Positions 34,758-64,000 of a stretch of DNA of 64,000 nt are shown piece after piece. This stretch comes from a virus. Taxonomy: Duplodnaviria; Heunggongvirae; Uroviricota; Caudoviricetes. Where the stretch lies: IMG/VR virus record IMGVR_UViG_3300001528_000174, positions 64,001 through 128,000 of that record; one strand, given 5' to 3'. Made by a program: the position numbers and the translations under genes. A model generated the notes under the pieces. The model did not search any database. It saw nothing but the letters and a program-made list of their open reading frames with translations, and was not told the origin of the DNA. The stretch's first letter is position 1; each line of letters starts with the position of its first letter.

Positions 34758-35057
34758 ATGGAATACAAGTTTATTAAGAAATTTTAGGATGGTGGAGCAA
34801 TGGCTCCTGAACAAGCTGCTCAAGGTGCAGAACAGGGCGCTCCTGCTGGTTAGGAAGCAGGTGCTGAGCAAGATCCAATGGCTATGCTATTGCAGGCATC
34901 AGCTCAGGCTTTGTAGAATCAAGATTGTAATATGGCTATGCAAGTATGTCAAGCTTTGGTACAAATGGCTCAACAAGGTCAAGGTGGCGCTCCCGAAGAG
35001 GCAGGTCAACCAGTATACCGTAAAGGTGGAAGACTTGTTCGTAGAATTAAGAAGTAA
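34758..35057 (+). CDS. Small Gln/Ala-rich protein, 99 aa (code 15)
   Basis: MEYKFIKKFQDGG...YRKGGRLVRRIKK*; aattATG context; biased codons; own terminator. Confidence 0.8.
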
Positions 35058-35074
35058 TTTAATGTATAAAATTA

Positions 35075-35107
35075 ATAGGGGAGCATCTTATGGTGTTCCC
35101 CTTTTTT
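35075..35107 (+). terminator. Intrinsic terminator
   Basis: aggggagcatc-tta-tggtgttcccct followed by ttttt. Confidence 0.75.
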
Positions 35108-35112
35108 AATTT

Positions 35113-38100: not shown

Positions 38101-40161
38101 TAGCAAAATGCTCTCATATTATCACCTACTGAAAGTAAATAGGCTATATATCAGCAAATGTTTTCTCCTACTTTAACTAGACTAAATAATGAAGCTCAAG
38201 CTATGGGAATGAGAGCAAAACCTTCTAAATAGGATATTGAATTTGTAAGGAGTTAGGAAGCAAGAGCAAAGCAAAAATAGAGTCGTCAAAGAAAGGCTTC
38301 AGAAGTTATGGAGGCTTTTAAAAATACTCCAAGTAATAATACTAAGGGTCATAATAAAAATACAAATCTTCCTCATAAGCAATCTAATAAGAAAAAGAAA
38401 ACTAGCAGAGATAATAATATTAAAAGACGCTAGGATGGAGGAATATTGTATGATTATAATTTCTTAAAGTCTGTTCACGCTTTTTAGAAAGGTGGTATTA
38501 TTAAAGCTCAAAAGGGTACTAAAACTAATAATAATATATGGGCTGGTAATAATTAGGACTATGGTTATAATACTTATTTAAACAGAATATATGGAGATAA
38601 TGATGTTTTATCTTGGATGAGAACTCATTATAATGGCAATAATGCTACTAAAGCATATGCTGATTATGTTATGAAGAATGTAAATGACCGTAGTACTTAT
38701 GGTATAAATAATTATAATAACTCTTCTACATATACAGCTAATAATGGTATTGCTATTTTTAATACAGGTTATTAGAATAATGGAGATACTTTAAACTATA
38801 TTTTATTTGGAAATAACTATGATAATTATATTAACAAAAAGGGAGTAGCTTATAATCTTATAAATTTTACTAGACCAAATAATGCTATGCATACTGGAGA
38901 TAGTTATAATACTGACTCTAGTAAAGCTTATATAGATAATGCTTTAGGTTTATAGACTTACTCTCGTGTGGCTTCCTTAACTGATTCTAATATTAAATCA
39001 GGAGGATTTGGGGATTGGGGAAAATATTGGAAAGATTAGGGTAATACTGGTGCTTATTATTATATAGCTCCTAATGACACCTCTGGTAAAGGGTAGTGGA
39101 TTCCTACTAATGATAAAACTTTAAATGGTTATTAGGACTTTGAAGCTGCTCCTTAGACTACTCCAAAAGAATCTTCTAAAACTACTCCTACTAATATTGG
39201 TAAAAAGTCAATATTTGATAAAGATAAAGAGTATTTATCTAAATTAACTAGTAATCCAGGTAATTTATATAATGCAGTTGAAACTGGTAAATATCTATTA
39301 GCTAACAAAGCTACCAATGATATATTTAAAATAAAAGCTCCTAATTTTACTATTTCTCCTAAGCATACTAGTTATTAGGTAATGGATAATCTAGCTTAGC
39401 AAAATGCTTATCATAGTAAAGCTGCTGAAACTTTAAATTAGACTTCTAGACCTATTACTTCTAGTGGTCAATTATAGACAGCAGCTTAGCAAGAAAGTAT
39501 GAATAATGCTAATAAATTATTTTTATAGGGTAATGTCGAGAGAAATACTTGGTTAGAAGGATAGAAATAGTAGGCTTACAAAGCTGGACTATACAATATG
39601 GAAAGCTCTGTGGATACTGCTAATGCTAATGCTCAATAGGCATATAAAACTAGACGGATTAATGAATATCAAGACCCTAGAGACCGACTCAGAGGACTGG
39701 CTACTAATAGACAAAATTGGATTAATGCTTTAGAACAATTTAATATTATTAGTCCATATGTTGAAAGAAAAAATGCTCAACAGCAATACGGATTAGCTAA
39801 AGCTCAATGGGATTACCAAAATAATCAAAAAGTTTAGGATGCTTTAAGAGCATATCAACTAGTAGTACGATAGAATCAAAATAATTTAAATTTTGACCCT
39901 TATACTACTTAGCAATATAAAAACTTAGTAGCCGCTTAGAAAGAGGCTGGAGCAGACTATTATAATAATATGTATCAAATATATGGTATTAAAAATCCAG
40001 GATTTACTTTTAAAAAAGGAGGTAAATTTGAGGATATTTCAAAATTTAATACTAAAGAATTTTATAATACTGTAAGACATAGTATAAATACCGCCACTAA
40101 ACAAGGAGGAGATTTAGGTAAACTTATAAATACTTTATTTAAGAAAAGTAGTAAGAAATGA
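35113..40161 (+). CDS. Large internal cargo/ejection protein, 1682 aa (code 15)
   Basis: Whole frame scanned, only TAG interruptions; ends TGA; hydrophobic Gly/Ala hairpin 36718-36960; several xGG motifs. Confidence 0.8.
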
Positions 40162-42074
40162 ATTTAAAAATACAGAAATTTGCAGAAGGAGGTACTTCCT
40201 CCTCTGCATTTTTTTATTAGCCTTTAGCTATGGCTACTACAGGAGTTGAAGCAGAATCAGACACTGCTAAACTTATAAAAGCTATGACAGCAGCTAATAA
40301 AAAATCATCTAGTGATGACAATACAGGGAAAATAACAGACAAAGATTTTCTAGGATTACTAAAAGAAGTTGATGGTCTTCCTAGTGACATCTTGAAATTA
40401 TATACATAGGCTCAAAACTTTTGGGCTGACCCAACGAATACTGGAGATACTAATTATTCTAATTTTGCATAGCTATTAACAAGAATGTCTTTGCAAGCTA
40501 AAATTGCAAAATTTAATAAAGAAGTTTGGAATAAATCTAGAGATACTATGTTTGCTAATCACGCTGAAAATGAGATGGCAATTACAGATTAGGGTGATGT
40601 AGTAATAGAAACCAAAGATGGGGGAGTAGATACTATATCTATAGATAAATGGAAGCAAAATCCATATGCATATAAAACATTAACAAATGCCGATGTAATG
40701 GAATTACGTGCTTAGAAACTTCCAGGAAATAATGCCATTCTAAATATAGTAAATGGAAGTGTTAGTATGGATTCTATTACAGATAAATTATAGAAAATAT
40801 TAAAAAATGCTTAGACTAATGAAGTATAGTCTTATATAAGTAGTGATAGTGTTAATACAAAGTCTGGATTAACAGTACTAGAAGGATTAGCACAAAGAGG
40901 CTTAGACCCTTCAACATTAACTATGCAGGGCGTTTATAAATATACTACTAAAGAAAATGCTAATTAGGTAGCTAATTTATTAAACTATGCTTGGAACTCT
41001 TTATCTACTAAAGAATAGACATTATTAAAAGCCAGAGCAGGTAAAGGAGGCACTGGAGCAGATTAGTTACTAAAACTACTAGCCGTTGGAAATACTTCTT
41101 TTGAAACTAAAGTAGACTATTAGGATTAGTTAAATTCTGATGGCACTAAAAAAGATACTTCTAAAAATGGAAAAAGTGGTTCTAATGGTTCTTAGGAAGG
41201 TGATTGGGAGGAAAAGGCTGATGCTAATCCAGCATATATGATTTAGAATGGTATAGGTGGATAGGACACCTCATATTAGTTTATGCCTGACTCCGCTAGT
41301 GCTGTAATGACTCTATATGGTTAGAAATATGGAGATATTAAAAATGCCCAAAACAAAGAAACTATACAAAGTACTAGTATAGCTGATATGCTGAGTAAGT
41401 CTGGATTATAGGGAATCAGTGATACTAGAGCTATATATTTTGGCGATAAAAGAATAGATGATCCTGAAAAGCTTAAAGACATTATGTACTTAAATCAAGG
41501 AGGAATGAGGGTAAATTTGCCTGCTAAAACTGATAATTATGGTAATAAAATTCCTGATTTTGAATTAATTCCTAAATTTGAATAGGCAATGAAAGAAATT
41601 AGAAATATACCTTAGAGTACTAATGTCAAGGCATATCTTATTAAAGAGGCTCAAATACTTAAAAAGTACGGTCTAAATGATTTAGTAGATTCCAAGGGAT
41701 TACCTAATAAAGATAGATTTGGTGCCTTCTTAGTAGTAAATGGTCAAGCTTCTTCTGATACCGTTGGAAATCCTACATTAGCTTCTACTATAAATAATAT
41801 GGATGCAGATTTTGAGGCTATGTCGAAAATATTATATCCAGATGGAAAAGGTGGAGCTACTTAGGAATTAAAAGGAGCAAGTATTGCTCCATTTGGTTGG
41901 TTTAATAGTAATATTTATAAAGCTCCTGTCTATATTCCTCTAGACAATAATCCAGCTTCTACTATGATATTAACTGGAAAAGTTACTCCTAATATGCTTA
42001 GTGCTATGGAAGGATTATACAGAGCTTAGAATATTCCAATTAATAATACTAGTTCTAATGTTTTAAATAATTAA
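40158..42074 (+). CDS. Internal virion protein, 638 aa (code 15)
   Basis: ATGA overlap; MNLKIQKFAEGG...; absent from the track; ends TAA 42072-42074. Confidence 0.75.
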
Positions 42075-42076
42075 TT

Positions 42077-45000
42077 ATGCTAAATAACGATTGGATAGTA
42101 GCCAATATAAATAATCCCGATTATAGTGCTGAAATGTTTAAAATGAAAGGGATAGATACAGATAATACTTAGATGTTAAGTGAGGATAGTTATCTTAAAT
42201 CTAATTTTATTATAAATAATCCAGCTTTTGCTGATAGAAATGGTAATTTTAGTAAAGATAAATTCCATAATTACTATCAAGAACAAGCTACTAAATGGGG
42301 AGAATTATAGAAAGATAAATTAGTACATACCATCTATGATATGTTTGATGTAAGGTAGAAACCTGGAGATTAGATATATAATCCATTTACAGGAACTACT
42401 TAGGGTATGAATACTGATAAAAATAATCCATTAGGCTCTTTTATAAAGTTAACCGCTAATCCTACTAATTAGGGGATTGGTATTAGTGGTTTTTAGGAAT
42501 TAAGTAATTAGAAAAAAAGTACTAGAGAAATTGCTCAAGGATAGAATATTTTTGATTCGTCCACTGGAAAATTTATAAATGAAACTCCTGATGAATTATC
42601 CTTATTCTCTAATCCTATTAAATATATTAAACAAATATTTAGTGATCCATTAGTGCTAGCTACATATGATAGTGATGGTGAAAATATTGACCCAATATCA
42701 GGATAGAAAGTAAAGCATTCCAAGGGAGATTTAAAATTAAATGATAATGGAAAACCTTATTATGAAACTTTAAATGGTAGAAATCCTGCTACTAAATAGG
42801 TTTTATCAATGGGTGATATAGTTACTTCTGAGTCTTCTGCTTTAAATAAATATGACTTTATTGATTCAGATGATATGGATAAAAGTATCAGTGGAACTAT
42901 ACTTAAAAATGTAGCTTCAGTGTTACCTTTAGCTGTTCCTTATGTGGGGGAAGCTTATAGTGCTGGATTAGTAATAAGAGAGTTAGCTAAAACTACTCCA
43001 ATGTTGTATGGTATGCTGAAATCTTTGTTTTCAGATAAACCTGCTAATAGTTAGTTCTTAAACTCTTTACAAGGTAGAGCTATGGCTGTGTCAGGAAGTA
43101 CTTCTGATGCAGGACAGAATGCTATATGGACTTGGGAAGGAGTATTTAATATGATGGGAGATGTTGCTACTCAATGGGGACAATAGAAAGCTGTAGCAAA
43201 TTGGACTAAAAAATTATTAACTGGAAAATAGGATTTAAGTAAATTAGCCGAAGAAGAAGCTAAAACCCTGTATGAATCTAAAATATAGGATATTTTAACA
43301 AAAGCTAATACTGCTGAAGATAAATATAAAGCCCTATCTTTATATGGTATAGAGGAAGGTTAGATTGCTAAAATATTAGAACAAGAAGGTAAAGCAGTAG
43401 GAGAAGCTTGGAAATAGACTTCTGTAGGTTCAGCTGCCTTACGTAAGACTTTTGATATTTATAAGCCAAGAATAGAAAAATTAAATAGATTAGGAGCTAA
43501 TGCATCTTTAGCATATATGGCATTAGTATCTAATACTGATGTATATTAGAGTATGTTAGATGCAGGAACTACCCCTAGAGAAGCCGCTGCTGTAGCTTTA
43601 GGATCTACTCTTGGTATGTATACAGTTGATAGATTAGGTATTGGTGAATTATTTTTTGACGAATTAGCAAAAAATGATATGCGCCAAATAAAAAATGCTT
43701 TACTTGGAGAAAAAGAAAATTGGGCTAAAGCACTTGGGATTTCTACTAAAACTATTCCTGAAGATGCTAATAAATTTAAAAAGCTTATATTAACAGGTAG
43801 AGATAAAATGGCTAAAGCTTTATCAGATTATGCAGATGATATAAAATATCATACTACTGGAGCTGTAGGTAAAGCTATTGGTGAAGGTCTTGAAGAAGTA
43901 TCAGAAGATGTAGTAACAGACTTATCTAAAGCTACGTATGAAATGCTTCATAATTTCGGTTTAACTACTCAAGCTAATGTAGGAGCATTTGATTATGATC
44001 CAAATCTTAATGGTGAAGGAAAAGGAGGATATAATATAGCTTAGTTACTTTCTAGATATGGAATGAGTTTAGTAGGAGGTTCTCTTGGTGGAGGTATGTT
44101 TTATGGAGTTGGGGTTTTACAAGGTAAAAACTTTCATATAAATAAAGACTCTGGTAATATGCTTTATTTAACTAGGGAAGGTAAAGCAGAAGATATGATA
44201 GATACTATTGAACAAATGCGTAAGAAAGGACAATTTGGAAGTACTACTATTTCTGCTACTAATTCTACTACTGATAGTGCTGGAGAACCTGTTAATATTA
44301 CTGTGGATGGTGATTTATCTGTAAATGATTATATAGCTAAAAGACTTACTAATCAAATACGTTCTTACTAGACTATTATGGATGATAATAATTTAAATAA
44401 ATCTGATGAATAGTTATTTAATCATATGATAATGTAGGATAAAGTATTCAGAAATCTTAGAGGATTTTTAGAAGATAAATCCTATATAACTCGTTATCAA
44501 GAAACTTGGTAGAATTTAGCACAGCAAGTAGTAATAGCTCAAAAAGGATTAGAAGTAGCGGCTTCTTCTAAAAATGGTGAAATTCCTAAAGAATTAATTC
44601 CTGAATTAGCAACAGCAGCAAGTTCTAAAGAAATAATTGATAAATTAGGAGAAGCTAGATTAATGGATTCTACAGAACGTCATAATAGTGGAGAAGAGGC
44701 TAAACGTGCTTAGAATGTAGCAGCTTGGTAGGATTATTTAAATAATAAAAAATAGGAGTTGCTAAATTTTGAATCTCCTGAAAATTCTTCTTACTATACT
44801 GAAATGTTAATGTTTGGTATAGACCCTATTACATCTTCTACATTTGGAGCGTATGATTTTAATTCTTGGTTATATAATACCCAACATGGATTAACTGTAG
44901 ATAAGTTAACTTAGTAGGAAGTAGAACAGTATAAAGCTGATTATTAGACTTATCAAGCTAATGCTCAACCTTTAGACCTATAGGAGTCTTTTAAATTATT

Positions 45001-46693
45001 CAAGGATTGGTAGCAAAAAATTGATCCATTTTTATAGTAGATGGCACAATAGGCTTAGAACTATGACAGCTATCAAAGAGAAGTACAAGAACTATTTAAA
45101 GATGGCATAACTTGGTATCAAAATGCCAATCATCCAGAGAATAAACAATGGTATGAAACTGATTAGGAATATGAGAAATCTAAATAGTAGGATGGGGAAT
45201 CAGCACAAGATTATAAAGTTAGACAAGAATAGAGAATTTAGGAAATAAATACAAAGGTTGAACAAAAACTTTAGGATTTAGTAAACTTTGTAAATATTCA
45301 TATACTAGATCCAATTACTTCCAGACAAATTAAAACTATGCTAGCTGCCAGAACTAAAGATATTAGAAAAAGCATAGTTCTAAATACATTTACCACATAG
45401 AATGATAACCTTATTAAAGAATTAACTGGAGATTCTTTAAAATCTTATAAAGGTAAAGATATTGATTCTTTAAGAACGGAAATTATTGGTACAGACACTA
45501 TTCCAGGAAAAATCGACTAGTATTTTGGCAAACTATATGGATAGTTTATTCATCCTGATTATGAATATGATAAAGATGCTAATGCAATGATTCCATTTAC
45601 TTCTTTATTTAATACTAACTCAAATAGTTTTAGCAATATAATAGTATCGGATTTATTAAACTAGAAAAGTATTAATGAAACTGCTCTACCAAAGTTTGAG
45701 GGAACTACTATAGAAAAAATATAGAATCTTTTACAATTATCCTCTATTGGTTTAGATAATATTTATAGAGGCTCAGACTCTCGTTATTAGGGGAAATCTT
45801 ATAAATATATATTAACTGAAGTTTTTGGAAAAGATGTTGTAGATAGAATAGAAAATTCTTTAGAAAATTCAGAATATATTGACCCTGATACTAACTAGCA
45901 TTATAATTTATAGTACATAAATCCTTATAAATATATAGCTAATGGAGAACAAATCTCTGATGAATTAATTGAAAATTGGTTACAGGAACATAAAGATATA
46001 TCAAATAATTCTATACAGTCTCTATTTAAACTATAGTCTTTAATTCAAAATAAAAATACCAACTTTGATGAAGCTAGAAAATCAGTAAATGATAGTTATA
46101 AATCTTATGCAGAAGCTATACTAAATTAGGTTGAAAATGATATAAATAGTAATTTACTTTATTAGACTTTAACTGGGTTAACAGAATCATTACCAAATCC
46201 TATAGTAGAGCTAGCTAAACATTTACCTGTGTATAATGAAAATGTAGAATCAGTAATTTAGAAAATGTATTAGCATTTTGAAGACGAAGAAGACGTTAAT
46301 ACTTTCCAATTAACAGGTTAGGAAATGCAATCTTTACAATAGGTTGAAACAGTATTAAATTTAGCATCTACTTATATTCATGCTGCTTCTACAGATTAGG
46401 ATTTAACAAATATATATGGACATAATAAAACTATAAATAGATTTAACCAAGAACATAAAGTAAAATCTAATCCATTAGCAGAAATTGATGAAAATTATGC
46501 TAATATTTATCAGATAGAAATAGGAAAATATTTAAATTTAATTAATCCAAATAGTTATTCCCTTCCATTTATTTCAAATATAAATCAAAGAAACATTATA
46601 GGATAGTTTGACTAGGCTAAAGAAAAGTTTAATCAAGCTAAAAAAGAATTTTTTAAAGCAAATAGAAATAATTTTGAGGCATGCGTTGTGTAA
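42077..46693 (+). CDS. Giant internal virion protein, 1538 aa (code 15)
   Basis: ttaattATG start; frame open to TAA 46691-46693; ends ...NNFEACVV*. Confidence 0.78.
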
Positions 46694-49600
46694 ATCTATT
46701 AGAAAATTACTCAGAAGATATGGACTTAAAAGATATAGAAGCATTACTATATGAAAACTATCATAAATATAAAGGATAGGGTTATGATGTAAATGCCATA
46801 TTTGATTAGTTCATAGATAATATAAATAAATAGGAAACTACTAATTTGGATTAGAATGTTTCTTATACTACTTTTAATAATTATGATAAAATATCATATT
46901 TATTAGCTACTATTGGTATTAAATCTGATGATTATTTATCCTTTATAAAAGATGAAGTTAATAAATATAATAATATAGTACCTATTGATGCTCAGTTATA
47001 TTTAGCTAGGATAGGAATAGCTGCTATAAATAATCCTCAATTAGTATCTTCAGTAATAAATAGAATAAAACAAAAATCAGATATTAAAGTTCCTATATTA
47101 GATAAATTATTATTTATAAGTGGGATTGGTGGTTCTGGTAAAACTTCAGTAGTGGCTAAATATATCACTGATTATGCTAAAGATAAGCATATAATGGTTG
47201 CAGGACCGACAGATGCTCAAGTAGAAGGATTAAATAAATCCTTAGGAGTAACTGATGGAATTAATGCTTAGTAGTTGTTATCTTTAGTTATAGATAATGC
47301 TAAATATAAAGATTTAAATGGAAAGTTTAATAGGTTAGATAGTACTGATAACTTAGATTCTATAATTAGTAATGTTGATGTAAAAAATCATGATTCAGGA
47401 GTATTAGTTATGGATGAGATAACTCACTTTAGTACTTTAGATTTAGCTTTAATAAATAAATGGGCAAAGAAAAATAATATATTTATATTAGGTCTAGGTG
47501 ATGATACTTAGTCAGGATATACTACTAATAGAATAATAGCTAATATAGATACTGATAATGCTTTCTGTTTACGAACTCCTAGACTTGCTATTTCTTTAAG
47601 AAATGGTAACATACAACAATCATCTGATACTAAATTATTATATGAATTAACCTAGTAGGTACGAACTTTAATAAATGATGTAATGCCTAAAGATAAATAT
47701 ATACAGGCTCGTAATGCTATTAAGAATTACTCACCTAGATATAGTTATTCCTCTGGAGAATTACATGGAACAGTTGTAACTGATTCTTTTGACTAGTGGG
47801 ATATGATTCCTAAAGACACTCCTAAAGGTGTAGCTTATATTGGACTTAATGATATTACTAGTAAAATTCCTTCAGCTGTTAAATTTAACAATATTAAAGA
47901 ATTACAAGGTTAGGAATTTGATTATTTAATTTATGAAGGTAATATTAAAGCTCAAACTGAAGATTATAGTGATACAGCAGTTGGTGATCTATTAAATAGT
48001 TCAAGAGAGTTATATACATTAATAAGCAGAGGTATTAAAGGAGCTGTTATTATATCCCCTAACTCTGGATTTAGTAGTACAGAAGAATTTTATACAGGAG
48101 ATACCACTGACTTCTCCCAATATGCAGAAGAGCGTAGAAATAATTTAATTAATGAATTGTCAGAATATACCTATAATCCAGCTACAAATACTAGTACAGA
48201 AGAAACTAGTAATTCTTCTGAAGGAACTGTGGAAACAGTAACTCATTATAATATGGCTGATTTAGATGAAATGGTAGCAGATTTAAATATAACTCCTACT
48301 GACAAAGAGTCTTTGGATTCTGAAAATAGAGAAGCTAATTAGTTTACTGTAGAATCTATATTGGACGCTCCAGCAGAAAATAGTTTTGATAGATGCTATG
48401 GTAATTTTAGTTTATTAGGGCTAACAAGAAATTCAAAAAAAGAATGGATTCAAGATATTAATTCTAACGATTTATCCGATATTGGAGTAGTAGCTAGATT
48501 TAATAATGCTAAACAAATTATCTCTGATGGTAAAGATAAAGATAAATTAGTACGTCAATTACTTACATTAAAATATGCTTTAATGTAGGTTAGAAGAACT
48601 GATACTGATGAAAGATGGGATGGAGTAACTTTTATGGCTAATCATCCAGAATTATCTCAATATTTTAATTCTCCTGAAACTTTTGAAAATTTAAAATATT
48701 ATGTAACTTTAAGAGAGAAAAAAAATACTGATTTATTAGTAGGATTTTCTGATTTAAATAATGATAAAGTATCATTTAATTATAATGGAAAGTAGTTAGT
48801 TGCAGTTGTAGAAGCAAAATGGACTACTACTGATAATGAGGGTAATTTAGTAAATAATACTATAACTCTAGGAAGTTTACCTAACCCTGATAGAAATGGT
48901 TCTTATTCTAAATATGCAGATGAACATCCTGAATTGATACCCGTTTATGATAATTATGTAAAATAGTTTAAAGCTATTTATGATGAGGGAGGTTAGAGAG
49001 AGATAAATGCTCCTAAAAATCTAATAACTTTATTGAAAAAAACTAATTCACAAATTCCATTTTAGAAAGTTAGATCTCAGCAAACATGGAAATGGGAGCG
49101 TACTATTAATGGTGAAACTTTTAAAGGAACTACTGAGGGAATTTTAAGAGATGCTGACACTATAGATAAAGCTGCTTTAAAAGATAGAGGTTATCTGTCA
49201 GTATCTGATCTTATAGTTTATATGGGAGGAGCAAATACTCTACCAGGATTAAATCCTAGAATGGAAGGTCAAGCAATTTATTTAGTATCTAGTTTACCTA
49301 ATATGAGTACTGAAGAATTAGTACAAATGTATTGTAATAATAAATTAAATACTAGCTCTGATAATCTAGATAGAATGAAGGTGCGTATGATAGCACCTAC
49401 TCATAGAGGATTATCTTTTTAGGATTTAACTAATTAGGTATGGCAAGATATGTATACTTTAAAAGCTACTGAGACTGAAAGTGCTAGTAAATATCCCTAG
49501 GATTAGACTCAACTAGGTCTTAGAATGTATACTCATTTATGGAATACCAGAGCTAATTTGAAGAGAGTACTTGCTGCTTTACAAGCTAATCCTAATGATA

Positions 49601-51330
49601 CCTTACATATATATAATCAATTTAGAAAGTTAAATCCTGAAGGATTAAAAAATAAAAATCTACGTTACTACATAGGGTGGGATGAGAAAGATAGGAATGA
49701 AGCTTTCTTAAAATTTACTAATAATACATATTCTTGGGACGATAATACTCCAATAGTTGATGGTTTAAGAGATGCTTTTATAGCAGAACAGAAGTCATTA
49801 AAAGAATCCGACCCTAATAAATTAAAATATTATACTTATGCTACTCCAGAATATATGTAGTAGATGCTCAAAGTAGTAGATGGAGCTTTAGCTCCATTTA
49901 AAGATTTTATTACTTTAAAAACTTATAATGAGGATGGTACTACTTCTAATTTTGATGAATCTAACTATATAACTTTTGATAAACAGGGTAATACTAATGA
50001 TATTCGTAAGTTATTTATGCATTCTCTAAACGACTATCAAGAAAATAGTAGAACTTATGAGTTTGCTTTTCCTACTTATGATTCTAACGGAAACGAACGT
50101 ACAGTATTTGTAAATCTTGATTAGGATGTAATAAAGTCTTAGCAACAACTAGCTGAAGCTAGAAATAATTAGTATAAACCTTGGAATATCTTTAAAATAG
50201 TACCTATGATACTTACTAAAAATTATAGATTTGTATCAATGGCTATGTCTCCACAAGGTAATAAACTTTGGAATAAAGATTCTAATAAATATAAGTATAA
50301 ATACACTGACTCTGAAGGTAATAAACAAGTAAAAATATTACCAATGTAGGATTTAATAAAAGCGGGTCAAGAAATAGGAAGTACTACAGAATTTACTAAT
50401 ATAGTAGATTTGATTTTTCATGGTACAACTAAAGTACAAGATCCAAATGTATTTAGAGAATCTACTGCCCCATTTAGATGGGGTATATGGGCATATCCTA
50501 GAGTAAATTATGAATAGGGAACAGAATTATTATATAAGAAAAATTCAGCTGATAGAGGTACTGCATATTTTAGAAAAATAAGAAATACTTCAGGAACTAA
50601 TAATATTAATAGTTTATATATGTCTAATGTTATTCCTATTCCTTTAGCTGATATATCTTTAAATAAACGTTCGGATATTACTACTAAAGAATAGCCTACA
50701 GAGCAAATACTTTCGGGAGTAACTAGCAATATTAATACTATAAAAAGTATGGGAGTAGTTACTGGAGATTATAGTACTACAGAAGAAGCTTTAACAGCTC
50801 ATAATAAAGAATTATCTTTATTAGATTCTGCTTCTATAGAAGGATTTTCAGAAATACCTTAGTTATTACAATTAGAAGATGGAAAATTAAATTATATAAA
50901 CTATCAAACTGAAGATATTATTCAAGGATTTGATTTTAAAACTGGAGAATCTAAAAATATATTTAAGAGTATTGATAATGGTAAATACTATATAGTTAAT
51001 AATGATGGTATAGTGGAAGAATATAAATTAAATTCTGATGATTCCAGTAAAAAGAAAAAACTTATTGAAGAAGCTATTAAAGATAAAGAAGTTTTAAATA
51101 AAATATATGATGAATTAGTTGTTACTACAGATGAAATGGGATATGATGAAGATACTATAGCTGAGGATTATATATCAAGAGATGATTTTGTAAATCTATC
51201 TTCAATAGAAGATGTAAAAAATAAAATAGAAGAAATATTAGATGATACTGCTGCTGATGGTGAGCAACCAGAGGGTAAGTATTTAGATAATATTTTAGAT
51301 TATGAAAATTGTTCTATTAATTTAGTTTAA
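46681..51330 (+). CDS. Giant virion protein with SF1 helicase-like domain, 1549 aa (code 15)
   Basis: Walker A GIGGSGKT (47122), Walker B VMDE (47407), GDDTQ, LQGQEFD, LYTLISRG; starts MRC, ends ENCSINLV*. Confidence 0.78.
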
Positions 51331-51333
51331 TAA

Positions 51334-54300
51334 ATGGCTTGTAAAGAACTTATTAAAATAACAGGTACTGATAATATGGAAGCAGTACAGTCACTATTAG
51401 ATTTTTTAACAAGATTAGATTCTAAATAGTGGAAAAATTTAAAAAATGATGATGCTAAATTAATGAAAGTTATATCTAAGTCAGTGTACTTACCCGAAGA
51501 GGGTAAGGCACTTACTTAGGATGATGTAATTCATTTAAAAGCAGTGCAACAACAGATAAATCTGTTAGCTAATAAATTTGAAAATATTAAAGGTGATGAT
51601 TTAAATAAATTATTAAAAATATTTGAACCATCAGCTACTACATAGGATGAATCTATTAATCAAGAATAGACTATAGATACAGCTACACAATAGATATTAG
51701 ATGCAATTAAAGCTCAACAAGAAGAATTAGTAGTTACTAATAAAGAACTTCTTGATATGGCTTATGTAAATAATAAAGGATATGATAGATTAAGAAAATT
51801 CGATTTAACTAGAAATGTAATTAATTCAGTATTTGTAGCTAAAAATGGATATGAATTAAATTCTAGCGAATGGGATATAAATAATAATATAGCCAAGCTA
51901 AAAAATACATGGCTTAATATTATTAGTTCTTATTTGGGTATGGATGTTGAAAATATGTATACTCAAATGAACGGGATATTAAAATATAACTATAAAGCAG
52001 ATGATATTATAGAAGCTTTTAAACATAAAATATACAATCATGAGTTTAATACTTCATTAACTTCTGATATAGACTATAGAAATGCTATAGCTGCATTTTT
52101 TAATCTTATAAATTTTGATGAAGATATTAAAGAAATTATCGGTAAAGATTTAAAAGTAATTGGCAACTCTAATCATAGTTTTGGTAATAAAAATATGCCT
52201 TATGTTTTAAAAGGAGAATCATCATTACGTAAGAGTTGGTCTGACAATGAGCTGATAAATGGACTTACTAATATATCTTAGATGTCTAAATCTTTATTTA
52301 AAGTTATTCCATATATCAGTCAAAATGGAAAAGATGAATCTCAATTTATTGATGATATATCAGCTATTACTGCTTTTAGTCATTTAAGACAGGAATTATC
52401 TAATACTAATAATATATATCTTACTCAATTAAAGCAACGCGCTTAGGTTTTTAGAGAAAATCCTAATAAATTGTTATATGATATATTTAATAATCCTCAT
52501 ATTGAAGATATTATAGGAACCTTTGAATAGAGAGAGTAGGATATATTGCATTCTATTAAATAGTGGGGATTTTCTGATAATGGTTTATATAAAAAGCAAT
52601 TAGGAAATACTACTCATAAAGCTACAATATTAGATTGTATTGTAACTTCAATGATTTCATTAGACCCTATGAATTACCAACAAGTTTATATAGTAAACGA
52701 AGGTAATAAAATTACTTCTAGAGTATCATTAAAAGATAAGTTTAATTATAATAGGGAAGCCTTAAATACTACTGAAACTATTAATAATTAGAATGATGAT
52801 GCTACTTCTATGGACAATTCTATGGTAGTTCATAATAATTCTGGTAAATTAGATTACATAAATCCAGCGGGAGTTGCTGTACCTAATACTTATCAAATTA
52901 GACATGGTAATCTATTAATAGTTGTAGGACCTAATACTAGAAAAACCAATCTTCAAGGGGTATTATCTACTAATCCTAGTAATTTAGATATATACGTATT
53001 TAAATTAAATGGAAATACCTTAGAAAATGTTACTGGTCAGTATATAGGAGGAGATTTTAATGAGGGAGCTATAATTGATGGAAAAATTGATTCTAGATTC
53101 ATTGATATGTTTTCTTTTATAGAAGATTCTTTAGGTCTAAATACAGTATCTGCTGAGCAGTTATAGAAACAATATACCTAGATGTAGAAATTATTTGGAC
53201 ATGGTATATATAATGGATTTACTGGAATGTTAGTAACAGCCATTAGAAATGAAATAGCTAAACATCTTGTAGGATACTATCACGACTTTGTAGAAAATTA
53301 TCCATAGGCAGCAGTTTCACAATTATCTATAGCTAATTTTTATGATTCAAGTATTAATACTTTATTACCAGATACTTATAGCAATATAAATTTAAAAGCT
53401 GTACGAGGTTCTATTGCTAGACCAGGAGAAACTGGGACAGAATTTAGAGTAGCAAATGCCTATATTGATAATTGGTTGTTTGCTTTTGGATAGTCTAAAA
53501 AAATAGTAGAAGGTACTAATATTTCTGCTGTAACCTCTAATTCGGAAGGTTCTAAAATACCTAATTATAGACAATATTCTATTGGAAATAATATTTAGGA
53601 ATTATTAAGAGAACAAGTTAATTCAGAAAATAATTATAGAGGTCAAGAAGTAAGAACTAGTGCATCTTCACAATTATTATTTGTTGATAATCTAACTCAT
53701 GGTACTAATTTAGTTATGGATGGGAGATTAGACCTAGAAGCTGTTGATATGTATGGTAAATCAAAGCAATTAAAAAATATGAGTTCAGCGGAGCTAGCTT
53801 ATCATGGTATTATAGATAACTTTTTTACTCATTTGTTTGATGAATCTAATCCATATGTAACTATAAAACCAGCAGATTATTCTGATAAAACTTCTGATTT
53901 TGTATATTCTATAAGAACTAATGTAAATGTTGCAAATATTGGAGTATCTTTAAATAAAGCTACCAGAGAAGATATACAAAAATCATATATATTATCTATA
54001 GGGTAGTTTTATAAACGTTCTTTAAATAATACTTTATATGATTTAACTAGAGCAATTAATCGTTAGAAATTTCCTTCGTATCCTTTAACTACAGAAGCTA
54101 ATACTACAATAGGATGGGGAGAAGATGGGTTATATCATATAGGATATAATATGACTGAAGATCAGTTACTAGAAGCCAGTAAAATATTTGATAATTGGAC
54201 TACAACAGTTCCAACAAATTCTACTATATAGATTGACGGTAATACCTTCACAACATCTACTTTATTAAGCATGAATCCTGATGATGTATTATATTAGAAT

Positions 54301-57300
54301 ACTGCGGGAGAAGATGTAACTGTTTCAGAAGTACTAGCACAAACTGAAAAAGGATTAAAAGAATCAGATTTAATTAAAATGGCTCAAGATGCTGGAATTT
54401 CTTTATACGCTAATATTAATTATATTAAAACTAAAGGAAAAATTAATTTAAGTCCTTTAGCAGTTTATTTAGGAAGTTAGCAATTTAAACCAGATTAGTT
54501 TACTAGAAGATGGCAAATGGAACAAGCTAGTTTCTTAGATACTTTATTAAAGAAAGGATTTAAAATTAGACTTACTTAGACAATTAATATAGACCCTGAA
54601 GGAGATTTGCCTCCTATAACTAAATCTTTACCAGCGTAGGGATTAGTAACTAAATTCTTTTAGAATTCTAATTTAAAATCTTGGAGGGAATATACAGACT
54701 CTGAAGGTAATACTAAAGAATGGAATTTAGGACAATGGATAAAGGGAGACTATCTAGTCTTAGGTAAAGCTATTGACAAAGACGGAAAAAGTACTGATTT
54801 ATTATTTGATGCATAGTTGCCTAAAAATGCTAGTAAAGTAATTATGAATCCTATGTTGGAATACTTCTTTAATGTAGACAATTTATTGTCTGGTAATATG
54901 AGATATACAATATTAGGTACTGAATTATCTGATCCATTAAAGTTTAAGGATTATAATTCAGTTAAAGGAGCTTTAATTAATACTTTAACTCAACAAATAA
55001 ATTAGACTTCTGATGTTAATGAGCAATAGCGTTTACAGAATATAAAATCTTAGGCAATGTCTATAGATTTTGAAAAGGAGTCTATTCAAAATATGGAGTT
55101 CTTAGCAGAAAATGCTCCTATGTTATTTCATGCGGAAGAAGCTAACTTATGGAATACTAGTAATAAGCGTGCTAATATAGTTTCTGCTACTATGATACCT
55201 TTTACTTTAGGAACATAGCAAGGAATTAATAAAAATATAAATGCAACGACAATCGAAGATATTTCAGCATTTGTTTGGAATTTTAAAGGATAGAAGGATA
55301 GTCCAATAGATGCTATGGATGGTTCTACTTTTATAAATCCTATACAAGCAGTATTTGAGTCTTGGTCTTTAGGAGGGCAAACAATAGGAATGGACAAAAA
55401 GACTATTGGTCATGCTTATGATAATAGAACAGGAGCTGTAACTTTATGGAAACACGCTACTTATGCTATGACTAATGAAAGAATGAGGATGTCTTCTAAT
55501 TCTGAAATAAATCTTACTAATATGTTTAAAAAGATGTCATCAATGAAATTTGGACATATTGTCGATAACAATGGAATAGATTTGAATCTAGTTACTGGCA
55601 GAGGTATGACCTTTAATAATTTATATTATGAATCTGGACCTAATCAATTTAGAAAGATTTATTCTTTAAATTATGATGAATCAAATAACTTATATTATAC
55701 TAAAGAGTTTGATGTAGATATAAATGGTCACAAAATTAATGATACCTTACATATTGAATATTAGGTATTTGATTCTGATACTTAGGAAAAATTAACACCT
55801 GAAGAATTTAATAATAGAAATGGTGAAGGAGTTGAAACTATAAATTCTGTTTATGAATTACATAGAGCATTAGGTGGGATTTATAGTAAAGAATTAACTC
55901 TTGATACGAATACTTTAATTGATTCTGAAGGTTCTAATTTAGCTACTGCATAGGTTTTAAATAATGCTACTTACATAGGTTAGAATGGAGATTTTGTTCA
56001 ACCTTATAAAGTAAAAATGATTCATTACTTAGCTAATAAATCAGGTTCTAAGAGAGCTCAGGGGAATATAAATTCTAAAGCTAAATGGTTTAATAATGAA
56101 CCTTTGACTTATGTTCCTATGACTATGATGCATTATGGAGTACAGCTTGATGCTGACCATGAAAAAGATGCAGGAGAAATTACTCAACCTACACAAGCTA
56201 TAACAGCGTTAGAGTAGGGAGGAAATTTACATAATTTGTCTAAACGAGTTTATTATGAATTAGGACAATTAGCAATGGAAACTTGTAAATTAGAGTTAGA
56301 TACTGCTAATAAATTCCTTGAAGCATATAATTAGGGTAAATAGTTAACTCCCTCAGAAGTATAGGAAATTACTGAAAATATTGGATAGTTAGTTGCCGCT
56401 AGTTACTCTCAATAGAGTGATGCTGAATTGGGGGATATTATTTTACAAGGTATTTCTAAAGTATTAAAGTCTAATAATGAAGAATTAAAATAGAATTTTT
56501 CTATTCCTTTTAGTGATGCTACCTTATATGGTAGTTTGTTACCATCTATTGCTACAGTTATTAATAATAAGGGAATTAAAGGTAAATATAAAGGATTAGC
56601 CTTAGTATTAACTCCAGGATTTAAATATATACAAACTTTTAAATATGGAGGAGAAACTCATATGGCATCTGATGTATATAATGATGCTTTAGAGGCTATG
56701 AATAATGGTACTTTTAATCCGCTGAATTACCGTCCAGCGATTAATGGAAAAAATAAAAGTGTATTATTATCTAGTACCTAGGAAGGAAGAACTTCTCAAA
56801 TTACAGACAAAAACTTATAGGTATTACCATTATCTTCGGACTACCAAGTTAGAAAGTAGCAAATAATAGATTGCTATTTGTTATACTAGCAATAGTTAGA
56901 AGAAGCTAAGGGTAATATAAAATATGAAGAATTTGTACCTTCTGATGTAGTGGATATTGTCTATCAAGTTAAAGGAGTAAATTATAGAACTCATTTATCT
57001 TTAGATAATATTGATACGTACTATGATTTTATTGATGCTAATACTAATAGTACTTTAAAAGAATATTTATTAAATCAAGGGGTTTTAATTGACCCCAACT
57101 CTGAAATAGTTTCATTGCATCAAGATGTAATGCATGGAAGAGACTTAGCTCCAGAGCGTATTACATTTGATTATGGTACTACAAATCCTGACGGCACTTT
57201 CAATAAAATAGGACATACTAATATATTCTTAATAGATGGTATTAGAAATAATAGAAAAAATTCTAATATACGTAGAGATTCCTATTAGAAAATTTTAAAT

Positions 57301-60300
57301 GATTTACATAAAGGAATAGTAACTATTAATGGTCAATCATATATAATACAAAATAAACAATTATAGGCTGCTGAAAATGTAATGCCTAACATATACAGTA
57401 AAATATTTGGAGTTGATAATTTATCATTAATAGAAGCTAGAAAGTTATTACAGACTAAAATTGGAAAAGCTGAATATTACCAACCTAAAGCTTTTAAAGG
57501 TAACTATGATTTAGCTTTTACTACTGGAAATAATAAACACACATATATAAGTTTTTCAGAGCCTAACATAAAAAATGATTAGGATGTATTCTATAGAGAG
57601 AAGGATATTTCTAATAATATAATAGCTAAAAAAGAAGGAGAATTAACTTGGTTATATAGAGTATCTAGAGATAAGTAGTTACTTTATAAAGTAGGTCTTC
57701 GTACAAGTGAGGGAGATTTATATGTAGTAAAAGAGTATGGAGTTACTCAATAGAAAGGTTAGGGAGGAACTGATAAATACAATTACTATTATATCGATAT
57801 TAATAATTTAAGAAAGGCTGGTATAAACGATTAGGAAATATCTAGTATAATTAATGATATTTATAATTAGAAATTTTATTTAGGAGTTGAAATAAGTGAT
57901 TCTTAGAGAAATTCTTAGAAAGAAATTGATTTAATAACCGATTCTTTTAAAGAAGCTAATCTTAAATAGTTTATTAACAATCAGTTTTCATTAGTTGGGG
58001 ATGTTCTAGAAGATGCTAGAAATGAGTACTACTAGAATAAACAAAAATATTTAATGTCCTCTTTTGAAAAAACTTTAGATACTGTAGCAGACCGTATCCC
58101 TACTGCTTCTTTACAATCTTTTATGAAGATGAGAACTGTAGGATTTACTTAGATTAATAATAATAGAATTTATGTCTCTCATTTTTAGGCATGGCTTCAA
58201 GGAGCTGACTATGATATAGATAAAGCCTACGTAATGGGCTTTAATTTTGATGATAATGGACAGTTTATTGGATGGAGTAATTTATTTGATTATTCTTCTA
58301 ATGAAGCTCTTGAATCATCTTGTTCATTACCTGTCCCTAGAAATTCTAAATGGGTAAAATCTAATAATGGAATAAATATTGAAAGATATGCTAATGAAGC
58401 ATAGCAAGCATATAATTCAGATAATATTATTCTAAGAAATACTCTTATAAACAAAATATTAGATAGTATAGAATATACTCCCGGAAGTACTATTGAAATT
58501 AACTATTCTAGTCCTATATTAGACTAGTTAATTAATGATATTAATAATCACGAAAGTACTAAATTATCTGGAGATAATAAAATATTAGCTTTCCAAAATG
58601 CAGTATCTTGGACAACTCAAGCTATTGTAAATGATGAAAGAAATTTATTAGATTCCTATAGTCCTACCAATGTAGAAGGAATGAAATAGGTAGTTAAAGA
58701 TAAAAAGCTTGCTAGTGATAGTAGTACCTATACATAGTGGAATCCTGCTACTAAGTGGGTATTATAGGAGGAAAATTTAATTGGTAAAAATGTAATTTCT
58801 GTGGCAGCTAATGCTGAAAAAGTATATTTTAGTTTGTTACATTATTATAACGAGATAGTAAGACACCCTGAAAAGTATAATAAAGATTTATATACTTTTG
58901 CTAAGTCTTTTGAAGGGGTGTTTACAAATGCTGACGGTACTCCAATTATAAAAGAAACTATTGGAGGTATTAATTTTAATAATGATAGTAAATTAAATAA
59001 ATTATCTATTTTACTACTTAGTTCTAACTCTGAGCTAAATAATATTAAAGATTCTCTTATTTAGGAATTATATTAGGGTAATACTACAGAATATGAACAA
59101 GATTTTATAAATGCTTATAAAAATAATGAATATTCTGAGAAATTATAGACTTTATTAAATAATATAGATGTTAAATTAAGCGAGAATGAAGCTAGATATA
59201 TGCCTTTGATGTAGTCATTAATTAATAATTCTACAGATCCTTCTGATTTAATTTCTCAATTACTTAACTCAGCGACGGATTAACATATAAAATATTCTTT
59301 GATGATACAAATATTTGTATAAACTAAAAGTAGTTAATAATTTAATATATAAGCTATGAATAAAATTTCAGAAGAAACTATTTTAAAAATCAAAGAATTA
59401 CATGACAAGGGATTAAGTAATTTAAAAATTGCACAAGAATTAAATATTAGTAATGGTACTGTCAGTAAGTACTTAAAAGATAGATTTGGAATAATTAAAA
59501 AGAAGTGTGTAAAACAAATAGATTTTGATAAGTTTAAAGAACTATGGAATAATGGGAAATCTGATAAAGAGATTGCAGATTTTTTTGGAGTAAAAGAAGT
59601 AACTGTTAAAACTTATAGAACTCGTGGAGAAAATGCAGGAAAATTTAATAAAATTGTGAATTTTTCTCAAGAAGAGCATTCTTTATCAGAAATACAAGAT
59701 CAATTTATTAGAGGTTCTCTATTAGGAGATTTAAATTTATCAAAACCAACAGGTAGTCATGGTAAAAATTCCAGATTAGCTTTAGTACATAGTAAAAAGC
59801 AAGAAGAACTGTTTATGGCTAAAGTGAAAATATTAGAAAATTTTATGGGAAGTTATAAATTACAAACTCCTCCACCTGATAAACGTACAGGTAAAGTTTA
59901 TGAAACTTGGAGAGGAAATTCTAAGGCTCATAAAGTATTTACCGATATATACAACGAGTTATATGTTGATGGAATAAAACATTTATCTAAAGAATTTTTA
60001 AACACTGTTGTTCATCCTATAGCATTAGCATATTGGTTTATGGATGATGGCACTTTTAAAGGTACTTTGGCTACACATTGTTTTACTTATGAAGAAAATG
60101 AATTATTACTAAATTGGATGGATGAAAAATGGGAAGTATGCTGTACTATACAGAAAGAATTATCTAAATATAAATTATATATAAAAACTGAATCTAGATT
60201 TCTTTTTGAGAAAATTATTTTTCCTTATATGATTCCTTCTATGTATTACAAATTAAAATTTCTTGAACAATTACAAGCAGAGTCCGTTTAAAACTCGGTG

Positions 60301-62728
60301 AACTCAGGGAAACTCCTACGTTAGAGGACAATCCTGAGCCAAGCCTAGAATAACTCTAGGAAGGTGCAACGACTATCGAAAGACAATAATGAATCAAGTA
60401 GAGTAGGAATGATTATTCCGAAGCGCCGAGTGTTCTTTTTTAAAGAATAATGATATAGTCTAAATCTTATAGTAATATAGGATATGATTGAATGCGAAAG
60501 AGCTCATTTTGAATAAAATAAATGCAGGAATGAACTTAGCTGGAGTACATGGCTATTTAATGATAATGGGATTTTCATTGGATTAGATTGTAGATTTAAT
60601 GACTTCTCCAGTAGTACGACTTATAGATAGATTAAGTAAATCTGATATGTTCTCGGATATGGGAATTAGAAGTAATAGCGTCTAGAAAGTACTAGATTAG
60701 TTAATTTCTAATAATCCAGAAAAACAGAAAGACTGGTTTAAATATATTTTAGACCCGACATCTATTAATAAATATGACCCAGGTTAGGAAACTATTGTAG
60801 GACAAACTTTATTAGATTTATTAAATAATACTTCTATTACTATGGAAGATGGTGCTACTACATTTAGTTTAATAGATGGCATTTATGTGGAAACTTTTGA
60901 TAATCCTATGAGTGGTGAGAGCACAACTAAAACTTATAAAAGATTAAGAGATATTCCAAAGTAGTTTTAGGAAGATGTAGAATTAGGATTGCGACAAAAG
61001 TATAATGAAGTATTCTTAAATAAATTAAAAGGTTTTAAATCAGTACATAGAGGAGCTAGAGAGACTACAGCAGCTGCACAATTATTATTTAGTATGAATC
61101 AAGGTATTCGTACTCAACAAAATGAATAGTTAGCTTTTGAAAATCGTTTTAATAATTTTATAAAAGGATTCGATGAAATTCTTCCTAGTATTGATGATAT
61201 TAAAAAATTACAAGAAAAATACTCAGGAAAACTATTACCTAGTGCTTTAAATGAGCAAGGTACAGATTTAGCAGTAGATTTAGAAGCATTATTTAACAAA
61301 GTAAAAGAAATACATCCTAACTATTCTAATAACTATATTTATAGTATAGTAGCGCAAAGTATTCAAGCAGGAATATACAAAAACTTTAGTTTCTATGAAT
61401 ACATGAAAAATACTCCTATACGAGTACAGGAGTTAGATGGAACTATCCGAAATACTAATTATAGAACTTTAGCCACAGAGTACTATAATTTAATAAAAGA
61501 TTCTATAAATATATTAGATGTTATAAATCATTCTGATTAGTACAATGTTTATTTAGAATTACAAAAAGCTGCTACTATAAGTACTGATATAGTCTCTTAG
61601 AAGAGTTAGTTAGTTAGAAAATTCTATGAGATACTTCGTAGGGATAGAGGCTATATAGACTCCAAAAAATTAAATCAAATATAGAGTTATATTGATTAGG
61701 CTTATATTCAATAGTATTTAACTAATATCAGATTAAAAGTAGAAAATGGAACAATACCATTTTCATTTCCATTATAGTCTGGTCAAAAGTTATTAAAAGA
61801 TAGTAGACCTGTAAAAGTAATTTCTAACACTGAAGTTACTATGGATAGTCGTGATAACATTGCTACATTTAAATATTGGTTTCATAAATATCTAATTCCT
61901 TCTTTAAAAAAAGGTTCTTACTGGGATGGTGAAAAAATGTAGGAATTTTCTGAAAATAGATTTATTAATGGTTTATTAGTAAAAAAAGACCATGGAGTTC
62001 CTTCGTTATCTTTAGATATTGATATGTTAAATATTAGTAAATCTAGAGAATCTACATTACGATATGCTGCTTATGAGGAAGACTTTAATAAACTTATTAA
62101 TTATAAAATAGGTTAGTTTAATTTATAGGATATATTTATGATTTATAATTTATTTGTAAATTAGAATAAATATGGATATAATAGATTAACTACTTTATTT
62201 TAGAGCAAGTTATTAGAGGATGTGCATAATATTGGTAATCCTTAGTATATGTATAGTGCTTTAATGCAATGGTATCAACATCTAGGACAGGCTGATAAAA
62301 ATAATATTTAGCAAACTATAGATACTAAAGATTTACCTATTGAAGAGGCTATAAATGCTTTAGGAGTTACTTTGGAAGGATTTGATATATACTCGGCTCC
62401 TTATGTAGAATCTCTTACATAGGCAGGTAATAATAGAATGGTACGTATAAAAGATACTAGAAATACTCCTACAAATGGACTAATAATGTTATATGATACT
62501 AAAAATCATAAGTTTGTAGACGCTTTATCAAAAATGTCTGAAGGTAAAGATAATCAGAGAGAGCTAATAGAACGATTAAAAATAAATAAAGAATATTATC
62601 CTATAAATATAGATTTACAAGAACAGATTAATAAATTAGAATAGATGTTTAAAGATATTGTTTCAGGAGGCTCTAGCCTATACGATATGACAGTATCTGG
62701 TAAAGTAAAAATTAGAGTTAATTGCTAA
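51334..62728 (+). CDS. Virion-associated two-barrel RNA polymerase (beta/beta'-like fusion), spliced, about 3394 aa
   Basis: Exons 51334-59280 and 60491-62728; catalytic WLQGADYDIDK (58195-58224), DRIPT, AMDGSTFINP, DKK..KHA, HYGVQLDADH; junction SATD|NAKEL. Confidence 0.88.
59281..60490 (+). mobile_element. Group I intron in the RNAP gene, HEG in P1 loop
   Basis: P1 acggaU (59275-59280) pairs with Guccgu (60282-60287); P3 ctcggtg/cgccgag; P7 gacta/tagtc; terminal G at 60490. Confidence 0.88.
59356..60291 (+). CDS. Intron-encoded LAGLIDADG homing endonuclease with two N-terminal HTH domains
   Basis: FIRGSLLGD and LAYWFMDDG motifs; HTH-like GLSNLKIAQELNISNGTVSKYL and GKSDKEIADFFGVKEVTV. Confidence 0.85.
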   Translation: MNKISEETILKIKELHDKGLSNLKIAQELNISNGTVSKYLKDRFGIIKKKCVKQIDFDKFKELWNNGKSDKEIADFFGVKEVTVKTYRTRGENAGKFNKIVNFSQEEHSLSEIQDQFIRGSLLGDLNLSKPTGSHGKNSRLALVHSKKQEELFMAKVKILENFMGSYKLQTPPPDKRTGKVYETWRGNSKAHKVFTDIYNELYVDGIKHLSKEFLNTVVHPIALAYWFMDDGTFKGTLATHCFTYEENELLLNWMDEKWEVCCTIQKELSKYKLYIKTESRFLFEKIIFPYMIPSMYYKLKFLEQLQAESV

Positions 62729-63999
62729 TGAGTTGTACTATTACACTAAATATTGGCAATAATAAAATCACTTTGGACGGAATAGAGGAAAATTCCGTCC
62801 AAAGTTTTTATGATTATTCCAATCTTATAGAAGAAATAAATAAACAAGAAAAAACAGAGGATTTTATTAAAGCTATACGACAAGTAGGAATAAATGAATC
62901 TTCCTTATATGTAAATAAAGATATGTAGGGATTGTAGGATAGCAAACAGTTCTTTTTACCTAATATGACTTATAAAGAATTTAGGTCTAAATTTCCTACT
63001 GCACCCGAATTAGATAACATAAATATATTATATGTAGATAATTTAAAAGTAAATGGTACTGATACTTCTTTAGTGTATACTACTAAAGATACTTAGGGGA
63101 ATAATTTATATATAGTGCAAAAAGGTGGAGAGCAATTATTTATTAATTATTTAAATAAAGTATAGGCTATATAGAATAATGAAATTCCTAGTAATTTTAT
63201 AAATTTTATAAAAGAACTAGAACAATCTGACGAGTCTTGGTTAAGGAAGTTTTCTTCTTATTCATTTAATTAGTCTTCTAGTAAAAAAGCTAGAGAAGGA
63301 TATGAAGGAAGTACTAAAACAGCTAAAGAAGTTCTTATTAAATATTTACAAGACCCAGAAAGCTTTTATAAGTATTTACTATCTGGAAAAAATGCTAATT
63401 TTAAGCAAAACGTTGAACGAGTTAGAAAAATAAAAGAAGCTCTAAATTCTTTAAATAATTATGATGCTCCTAGAAACTATGGAACTCCGTTTGCTAACGC
63501 CTTAATGATGCATACTACGTATAAGAAATTTAATGGTAATATGTATAGAACAATTTCTTTATAGTAGTTAAAAACTCTAACCAAATAGGCTTCTCCTGAG
63601 TTATATGAAAGATATTTTTCTAAAGATAACCCTGATCCTAATACCATACAAACTAAAGTAAATTTAGTATTGCGTCAATTATTTTGGCATACTGACGGTT
63701 AGGAGAATCTAAGTACTAAGGGTGTACAAGTAGAAGCTATTTATAATGGTAATATATATTTAAATGTTTAGGCTCCAACTTTTGAAACTAAATATGGATA
63801 TACTATAAAGACTCAAAAAGCATATCCTCATCAAGAATAGGAATACAAAGGATATAATATATATTCAGCAGTAGTAAATGGTAATACTAAATTTATGGTT
63901 GCTAAAGGGATATTCACTGATTAGAATATTGGAAAAACTTATGATAGTTTATAGCAAGCAAGAGATTTTATCGATAAATCCTTTAAAGAGGATATTCTA
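62728..63999 (+). CDS. Next giant virion protein (3'-truncated by the window)
   Basis: TAATG overlap; MSCTITLNIG...; frame open with TAG=Gln to the window end. Confidence 0.75.
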
Positions 64000-64000
64000 A

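Follow-up and report, generated by a model that had tools for sequence, protein, structure and literature searches.

We have analyzed a window of 64,000 nucleotides, bases 64001-128000 of the 180.5-kb genome of a crAss-like phage (IMG/VR record IMGVR_UViG_3300001528_000174), that contains the genes for the RNA polymerase (RNAP) and other giant proteins presumed to be virion cargo. At every junction between consecutive members of this series a cysteine close to the C terminus of the upstream protein faces a cysteine at the third residue of the downstream one. On balance we think it probable that neighboring proteins are joined head to tail through these residues, with one disulfide bond at each junction, and that this provides for their ordered ejection.

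Paired Cysteines at the Junctions of the Cargo Proteins

Translation with table 11 leaves the window without long open reading frames (ORFs). When TAG is read as Gln, an unbroken late-gene block is seen on the + strand. The giant cargo proteins of crAss-like phages fall into three modules, which are helicase-like (A), the RNAP (B), and zincin and nuclease-like (C). Here the architecture is one of five genes, A1, A2, B, C1 and C2, as follows.

42077..46693, + strand: A1, N-terminal half of module A, 1538 aa, 1 Cys, ends ..FEACVV
46681..51330, + strand: A2, 1549 aa, 5 Cys, ends ..ENCSINLV, SF1-helicase-like P-loop domain at residues 136-280
51334..59280, + strand: RNAP exon 1, 2649 aa, starts MAC, Cys3 at 51340-51342
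59281..60490, + strand: RNAP intron, with a LAGLIDADG homing endonuclease ORF (59356-60291, 311 aa, no TAG codons)
60491..62728, + strand: RNAP exon 2, 745 aa, ends KIRVNC, sole Cys the last residue (codon 62723-62725)
62728..64000 and 1046 bases beyond the window end, + strand: C1, zincin (HExxH), 772 aa, starts MSC
beyond the window, last gene of the block: C2, 1552 aa, starts MSC

Taken over the whole genome, the putative chain consists of five proteins and four junctions, and at all four a cysteine lies 0-5 residues before the upstream C terminus and Cys3 is present in the downstream protein. A1 has its sole cysteine at residue 1536 (codon 46682-46684), 2 residues before the end. It has none at its N terminus and therefore marks the start of the chain, just as C2, which has no C-terminal cysteine, marks its end. 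A2 has Cys3 (46687-46689), Cys1544 (51310-51312, 5 residues before the end) and three interior cysteines. The two cysteines of C1 are at residue 3 (62734-62736) and at the very end of the protein. The preliminary description of the window had counted four proteins and three junctions. All three are real, and their coordinates and cysteine residues are exact once TAG is taken as Gln, but the chain was undercounted. Its statement that the proteins are nearly free of cysteine agrees with the counts for A1 (1 in 1538 aa), A2 (5 in 1549), the spliced RNAP (6 in 3394) and the part of C1 within the window (1 in 424 codons).

The cysteine content of the chain interiors is 0.14%, as against 1.18% in the 122 other ORFs of the genome. 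A cysteine lies at residues 2-7 in 4.1% of those ORFs, and 14.8% of them have one among their last 12 residues; at these rates the eight terminal hits have a joint probability of ~4e-16. Chance is excluded as the source of the terminal cysteine pattern.

Could the pattern nevertheless reflect chance, or a translational-coupling signal acting at the nucleotide level at gene junctions? The upstream TGC of junction 1 shares bases with the ATG of the next gene (GC-ATG-C), in a phase that permits only Cys, Trp or stop, and three junctions have the form ATG-NNT-TGT. Against this, spacing, codons and intergenic distances all vary: the two cysteine codons of one junction are in different reading frames and separated by 8-33 nt, the upstream codon can be TGT or TGC, and the two genes at the junction are >100 nt apart in crAss002 and p-crAssphage. 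In crAss001, gp47 (2341 aa, with one Cys, ..LRCNS) is encoded on the + strand, and gp50 (MSKRC.., and another Cys at -8) and gp49 (MAKKC.., with a single Cys) on the - strand. Because the partner genes gp47 and gp50 lie on opposite strands, a nucleotide signal at the gene junction is excluded; these convergent genes already refute it, and the pattern is found in 86/86 and 119/123 diverged RNAP representatives (see below). We give this explanation practically no credence. The A1|A2 junction itself is kept, with an indel, in the relative L012 and in 11 IMG/VR relatives.

Conservation Across the Crassvirales

The preliminary description had presented the chain as a feature of four proteins of this phage, and had suggested looking for enrichment of terminal cysteines in Crassvirales orthologs. 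The chain holds here but is not special to this phage, for the terminal cysteines are conserved across the order. We tallied 44 junctions in 22 genomes, including those of crAss001, DAC15, phi14:2, p-crAssphage, crAss002, Suoliviridae and the Flavobacterium phage Fpv1. The upstream protein has a cysteine within its last 12 residues at all 44 junctions (44/44), within the last 4 at 38/44, and as the very last residue at 15/44. The downstream protein has one at residue 3-7 in 44/44 and exactly at residue 3 in 27/44. None of the 40 outward-facing ends carries a terminal cysteine (0/20 chain-start N termini and 0/20 chain-end C termini). All 4 cysteines in the 5398 aa of the three phi14:2 proteins are at junctions, as are all 6 in the 8146 aa of L059.

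Searched exhaustively, the RNAP core gave 769 homologs (E<1e-3), from which 150 representatives of 50%-identity clusters were examined. A cysteine is present in the last 4 residues of every full-length representative (86/86), and the first cysteine is at residues 3-7 in 119/123, with an interior cysteine frequency of 0.31%. Of the four exceptions, two were examined in genomic context, and in both the start had been called wrongly: MNVKC or MRC precedes it in frame, and the upstream neighbors end ..HEC and ..NQC. Wrong RNAP starts were noted at three places, L041:17088-17186, L052:9938-10003 and L053:7326-7397. In the first of these, crAss002 gp33, the annotated start is too far upstream, and an MSC is present in frame 32 codons further in; in the two metagenomic contigs the start had been placed too far downstream. 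The M-x-C rule thus corrected the start codon in 3/3 RNAP gene calls checked, and the pattern also marks the first and last members of the chain.

An alignment of C1 proteins of ~20% identity has only 14 invariant columns, which include Cys3, the C-terminal cysteine and H632-E633-H636. The junction cysteines are conserved as strongly as catalytic residues. A homolog search with the C1 protein of L055 gave one weak match.

Before the C-terminal cysteine of the RNAP the residues are hydrophobic in a strand-like pattern (88% at -4), and the tail beyond it is empty or is E, K or D. An AlphaFold2 model of C1 (P0007), made from a 10-sequence alignment, has a mean pLDDT of 50 and a pTM of 0.30, with only the first ~50 residues moderately confident; in this low-confidence model Cys3 opens a predicted beta-strand. 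From the strand-like pattern in the RNAP and the predicted strand in C1, the terminal cysteines appear to adjoin structured elements rather than long tails.

Gene Fusions and Splits as Natural Experiments

The three modules are divided among genes in different ways in different lineages, and the number of cysteine pairs follows.

phi14:2, crAss001, DAC15: A, B and C separate; 2 Cys pairs
Fpv1 and the Suoliviridae cr1_1, cr52_1, cr10_1, cr7_1 and cr60_1: AB fused, C separate; 1 pair, at B|C
p-crAssphage, crAss002, cr8_1 and Rudgehvirus: A separate, BC fused; 1 pair, at A|B
wider clade of the window: C divided into C1 and C2; one more pair, at C1|C2
genus of the window: A divided as well, into A1 and A2; a further pair, at A1|A2

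Both cysteines of a junction are gained or lost together. Sister lineages have fused A proteins of 2935-3277 aa, the first half of which aligns with A1; the 220-240 residues of these proteins that align to the A1|A2 junction contain no cysteine. The AB fusion of Fpv1, gp33, has a single cysteine in 4401 aa, at -1, and its neighbor gp34 starts MAC. Comparison by BLAST of split B|C with the BC fusions of the Intestiviridae, and of phi14:2 A|B with Fpv1 AB, found the sequences too diverged to align by residue, so for these two fusions the argument rests on total cysteine counts. Since both partners are lost or gained jointly, pairing of neighbor with neighbor is the one scheme, among those that we considered, that fits. 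The ordered head-to-tail links that had been proposed for the window account for the comparative data better than any rival we could devise, and draw support from the pairing at 44/44 junctions, the bare outer ends and this tracking of gene architecture, all of which are direct observations; we infer the chemistry and the purpose.

These data bear on two further explanations. If the two terminal cysteines of the RNAP or of C1 bonded within the same protein, this would account for C1 and several RNAPs having just 2 cysteines, one per end. The A modules and the terminal C modules, however, have a single cysteine each, and AB fusions keep the C-terminal one only (1 in the 4401 aa of Fpv1 gp33), so the partner must be on another protein. 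We regard an intramolecular bond as very improbable. Alternatively, each terminal cysteine might act independently, attached to another virion component such as the portal, inner body or capsid, or bearing a modification or a packaging mark, with neighbors unlinked. A lone C-terminal cysteine with no evident partner is indeed present in p-crAssphage gp47 and gp48, crAss002 gp30 and Rudgehvirus g49. This explanation, which we consider quite unlikely, leaves unaccounted for both the bare outer ends (0/40) and the loss of the two cysteines together on fusion and their joint gain on splitting.

Two ways of joining proteins at their ends were examined and rejected. For split inteins and trans-splicing there is no room, with only 0-11 residues after the upstream cysteine (the very last residue in 15/44) and 2-6 before the downstream one. 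A zinc-hook bridge would have CxxC in each partner; here each terminus has a single cysteine, CxxC is absent and there is no conserved His in the vicinity.

A Possible Disulfide-Linked Chain

The bond envisaged would connect a cysteine 0-11 residues from the C terminus of one protein with a cysteine at residue 3-7 of the next. The product would be a covalent pseudo-polyprotein, of ~8800 residues in this phage, in which disulfides would take over the function that peptide bonds have where the proteins are fused into a polyprotein. If formed in the virion, such a chain would allow each protein to draw the next through the tail and the envelope, and the very short overhangs would keep the joint thin, as would suit a narrow channel. 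The reducing cytoplasm of the host would then open the links, freeing the RNAP and its partners as active subunits. That all crAss-like phages inject the RNAP and its partners as one covalent thread, held by terminal disulfides and cut in the host cytoplasm, is a proposition to which we would give an even chance.

Structural work on crAss001 provides a setting for this scheme. The cargo proteins gp45, gp46, gp47, gp49 and gp50 were detected in virions by mass spectrometry (PMC10172136). To get through constrictions of <50 Å the cargo has to unfold in part, gp45 probably leaves N terminus first, and the order of ejection was described as "likely controlled" by packing and mutual interactions (PMC10172136). 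Because the ejected proteins partly unfold, and unfolding destroys non-covalent contacts, only a covalent tether would keep the order. The paper on phi14:2 reports that the three proteins form one polyprotein in some phages.

The paired cysteines might instead share a metal ion or make another non-disulfide contact, with a role in assembling the A-B-C polymerase complex, either within the capsid or once ejected, and not as a tether for threading. The same evidence from pairing and architecture applies to such a contact, which could moreover form in the reducing cytoplasm where assembly takes place. On the other side, each terminus offers one cysteine, which is not part of a CxxC motif and has no His, Asp or Glu conserved next to it, and a structural metal site built from two thiolates would be a poor one. 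We think this unlikely, and continue to prefer the disulfide.

Several points weigh against a disulfide-linked chain. The bond itself is deduced from sequence. Virions are assembled in the reducing cytoplasm of the host, and the gut itself is anoxic, leaving no evident moment for oxidation. The binomial statistics on representatives ignore shared ancestry. The upstream cysteine of junction 1 could be a by-product of the gene overlap described above. Finally, in L054 (1050-7778) module A is split into four genes, of 865, 573, 94 and 598 aa, the second of them with the helicase domain, and the three upstream splits have no cysteine, from which it follows that not every gene split is chained. In that genome the last A gene alone has a C-terminal cysteine, and the chain seems to begin at the 598-aa protein. 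A complex prediction for the C terminus of P0269 with its L055 neighbor, a junction in the standard code, gave a score of 0.04, with poor folds, and speaks neither for nor against the chain.

Comparison with Known Systems

The cargo block of the window corresponds to the RNAP modules of phi14:2 (gp67-gp66-gp65, GenBank gp078-gp077-gp076) and crAss001 (gp47-gp50-gp49): it follows the muzzle and cargo genes in the same way, and a giant DxDxD protein has a large protein upstream of it and one with a zincin domain downstream. The orthologs of phi14:2 and crAss001 are packaged in the virion, the three are sometimes fused, and they obey the same terminal cysteine rule. The module here differs from theirs in being divided among five genes, in its use of TAG as Gln and in the intron in the RNAP gene. 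By analogy with these orthologs, for which there is mass spectrometry (crAss001 and phi14:2), the proteins of the window are presumed to be present in the virion and ejected.

The N4-like phages (Schitoviridae) eject a giant virion RNAP and partners that show near-total loss of cysteine. Suppression of cysteine in the ejected proteins (N4 gp50-gp52, DEV gp71-gp73) has been attributed to the oxidizing periplasm (PMC11445570). The N4-like proteins are essentially free of cysteine (0.00075% for gp71 homologs; PMC11445570), whereas the crAss proteins keep the terminal cysteines that face a junction. Disulfides between subunits are present in the crAss001 virion, in the gp57 dimer, the tail hub and the ring proteins (PMC10172136). 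These staple folded subunits side by side, in contrast to the proposed cargo links, which would run end to end.

In AB toxins, diphtheria toxin and the clostridial neurotoxins among them, one interchain disulfide tethers two chains during unfolded translocation, and reduction in the cytosol releases the cargo. The crAss proteins resemble these in having one cysteine per chain placed to pair (44/44 junctions), and by analogy an S-S bond and reductive release might be expected. An AB toxin, however, is made as one chain that is then nicked, whereas the crAss proteins are separate gene products, up to five in series end to end, in a capsid.

The RNA Polymerase and Its Intron

The RNAP gene is interrupted by an intron. 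The intron-less relative L012 reads ..LLNSATD|NAKELIL.. without a break, which places the intron and defines the spliced protein of 3394 aa. The ORF within it matches Pfam LAGLIDADG_2 (9e-33). The catalytic aspartate loop (DxDxD) of two-barrel RNAPs is present as ..LQGADYDIDK.., which begins at residue 2288, and D335, D337 and D339 are invariant in 46 diverged homologs. A profile of the catalytic region, run against a 15-sequence database, matched the catalytic loops of the Rudgehvirus RNAP (6e-8), crAss001 gp50 (4e-5) and phi14:2 gp077 (5e-4); the last two matches are weak. No match was found in the PDB at E<=0.01 with the single RNAP sequence or the profile, the solved crAss RNAP phi14:2 gp66 being the structure looked for, and hence membership of the RNAP family is assigned from the catalytic loop and synteny. 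The position of the gene matches that in the crAss cargo module, after the muzzle and cargo genes and adjoining a zincin protein.

Among the 150 RNAP representatives (P0129-P0278), 37 stop precisely at ..WLQGSDY, where the catalytic DxDxD loop begins, and several others stop at ..SATD, the site of the intron in the window. This points to two recurrent hot spots for introns (or gene-call breaks) in the RNAP gene, one of them within the catalytic motif.

Other Genes of the Cargo Block and Side Observations

A2 has Pfam matches to AAA_30 (2.5e-7) and AAA_19 (2e-6), and PHROGs and Pfam scans of the chain proteins gave no match besides this P-loop domain. Upstream of the chain lie the following genes.

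26846-32290: muzzle-protein homolog, match to crAss001 gp44 (1e-8)
32283..42074, + strand: four proteins of 583, 206, 1682 and 638 aa, directly 3' of the muzzle-protein homolog, presumed to be cargo from their position

These four proteins contain no cysteine in 3109 residues; they are context, outside the cysteine-linked chain.

In the Intestiviridae, small proteins encoded 5' of module A (gp47 and gp48 of p-crAssphage, L040; gp30 of crAss002, L041; g49 of Rudgehvirus, L048), also presumed to be cargo from their position, have a lone cysteine in a basic C-terminal tail. The tails (..YRCGGHRR, ..FRCGGKKKIA, ..QSCR and C followed by GGSVKRKMKR) resemble a KFQxGG motif in the cysteine-free cargo proteins of the window. 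Thioredoxin-like proteins are encoded near the dUTPase gene in several Intestiviridae (L040:30978-32245, L046:31230-31499 and L048:29240-29515); they may take part in virion thiol chemistry or in nucleotide metabolism alone.

Two other places in the genome were noted for their cysteine content. Within the window, a 163-aa ORF at 9692-10183 has its sole cysteine as the last residue (..KKNC) and overlaps a next ORF that has no N-terminal cysteine, which may be chance. Outside it, on the minus strand at 31557-38866 of the genome, five successive ORFs (943, 331, 167, 217 and 297 aa) have no cysteine, making up a second cysteine-free block distant from the cargo genes.

Implications

A full-text search of the literature found no paper that links crAss cargo proteins through cysteines, and the structural papers on crAss001 and phi14:2 are silent on it. 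The depletion of cysteine in ejected proteins is already known; junction-facing cysteine pairs we did not find described.

The Crassvirales are the most abundant phages of the human gut. The idea of a chain is testable with cultured phages and with existing mass-spectrometry data on reduced and non-reduced samples. If it is true, these phages link ejected proteins in series by a means for which we found no description in any phage. The occurrence of the proteins as fusions in some lineages and as separate products in others would then be explained, and there would be a simple answer to the question of how a megadalton cargo leaves the capsid in order.

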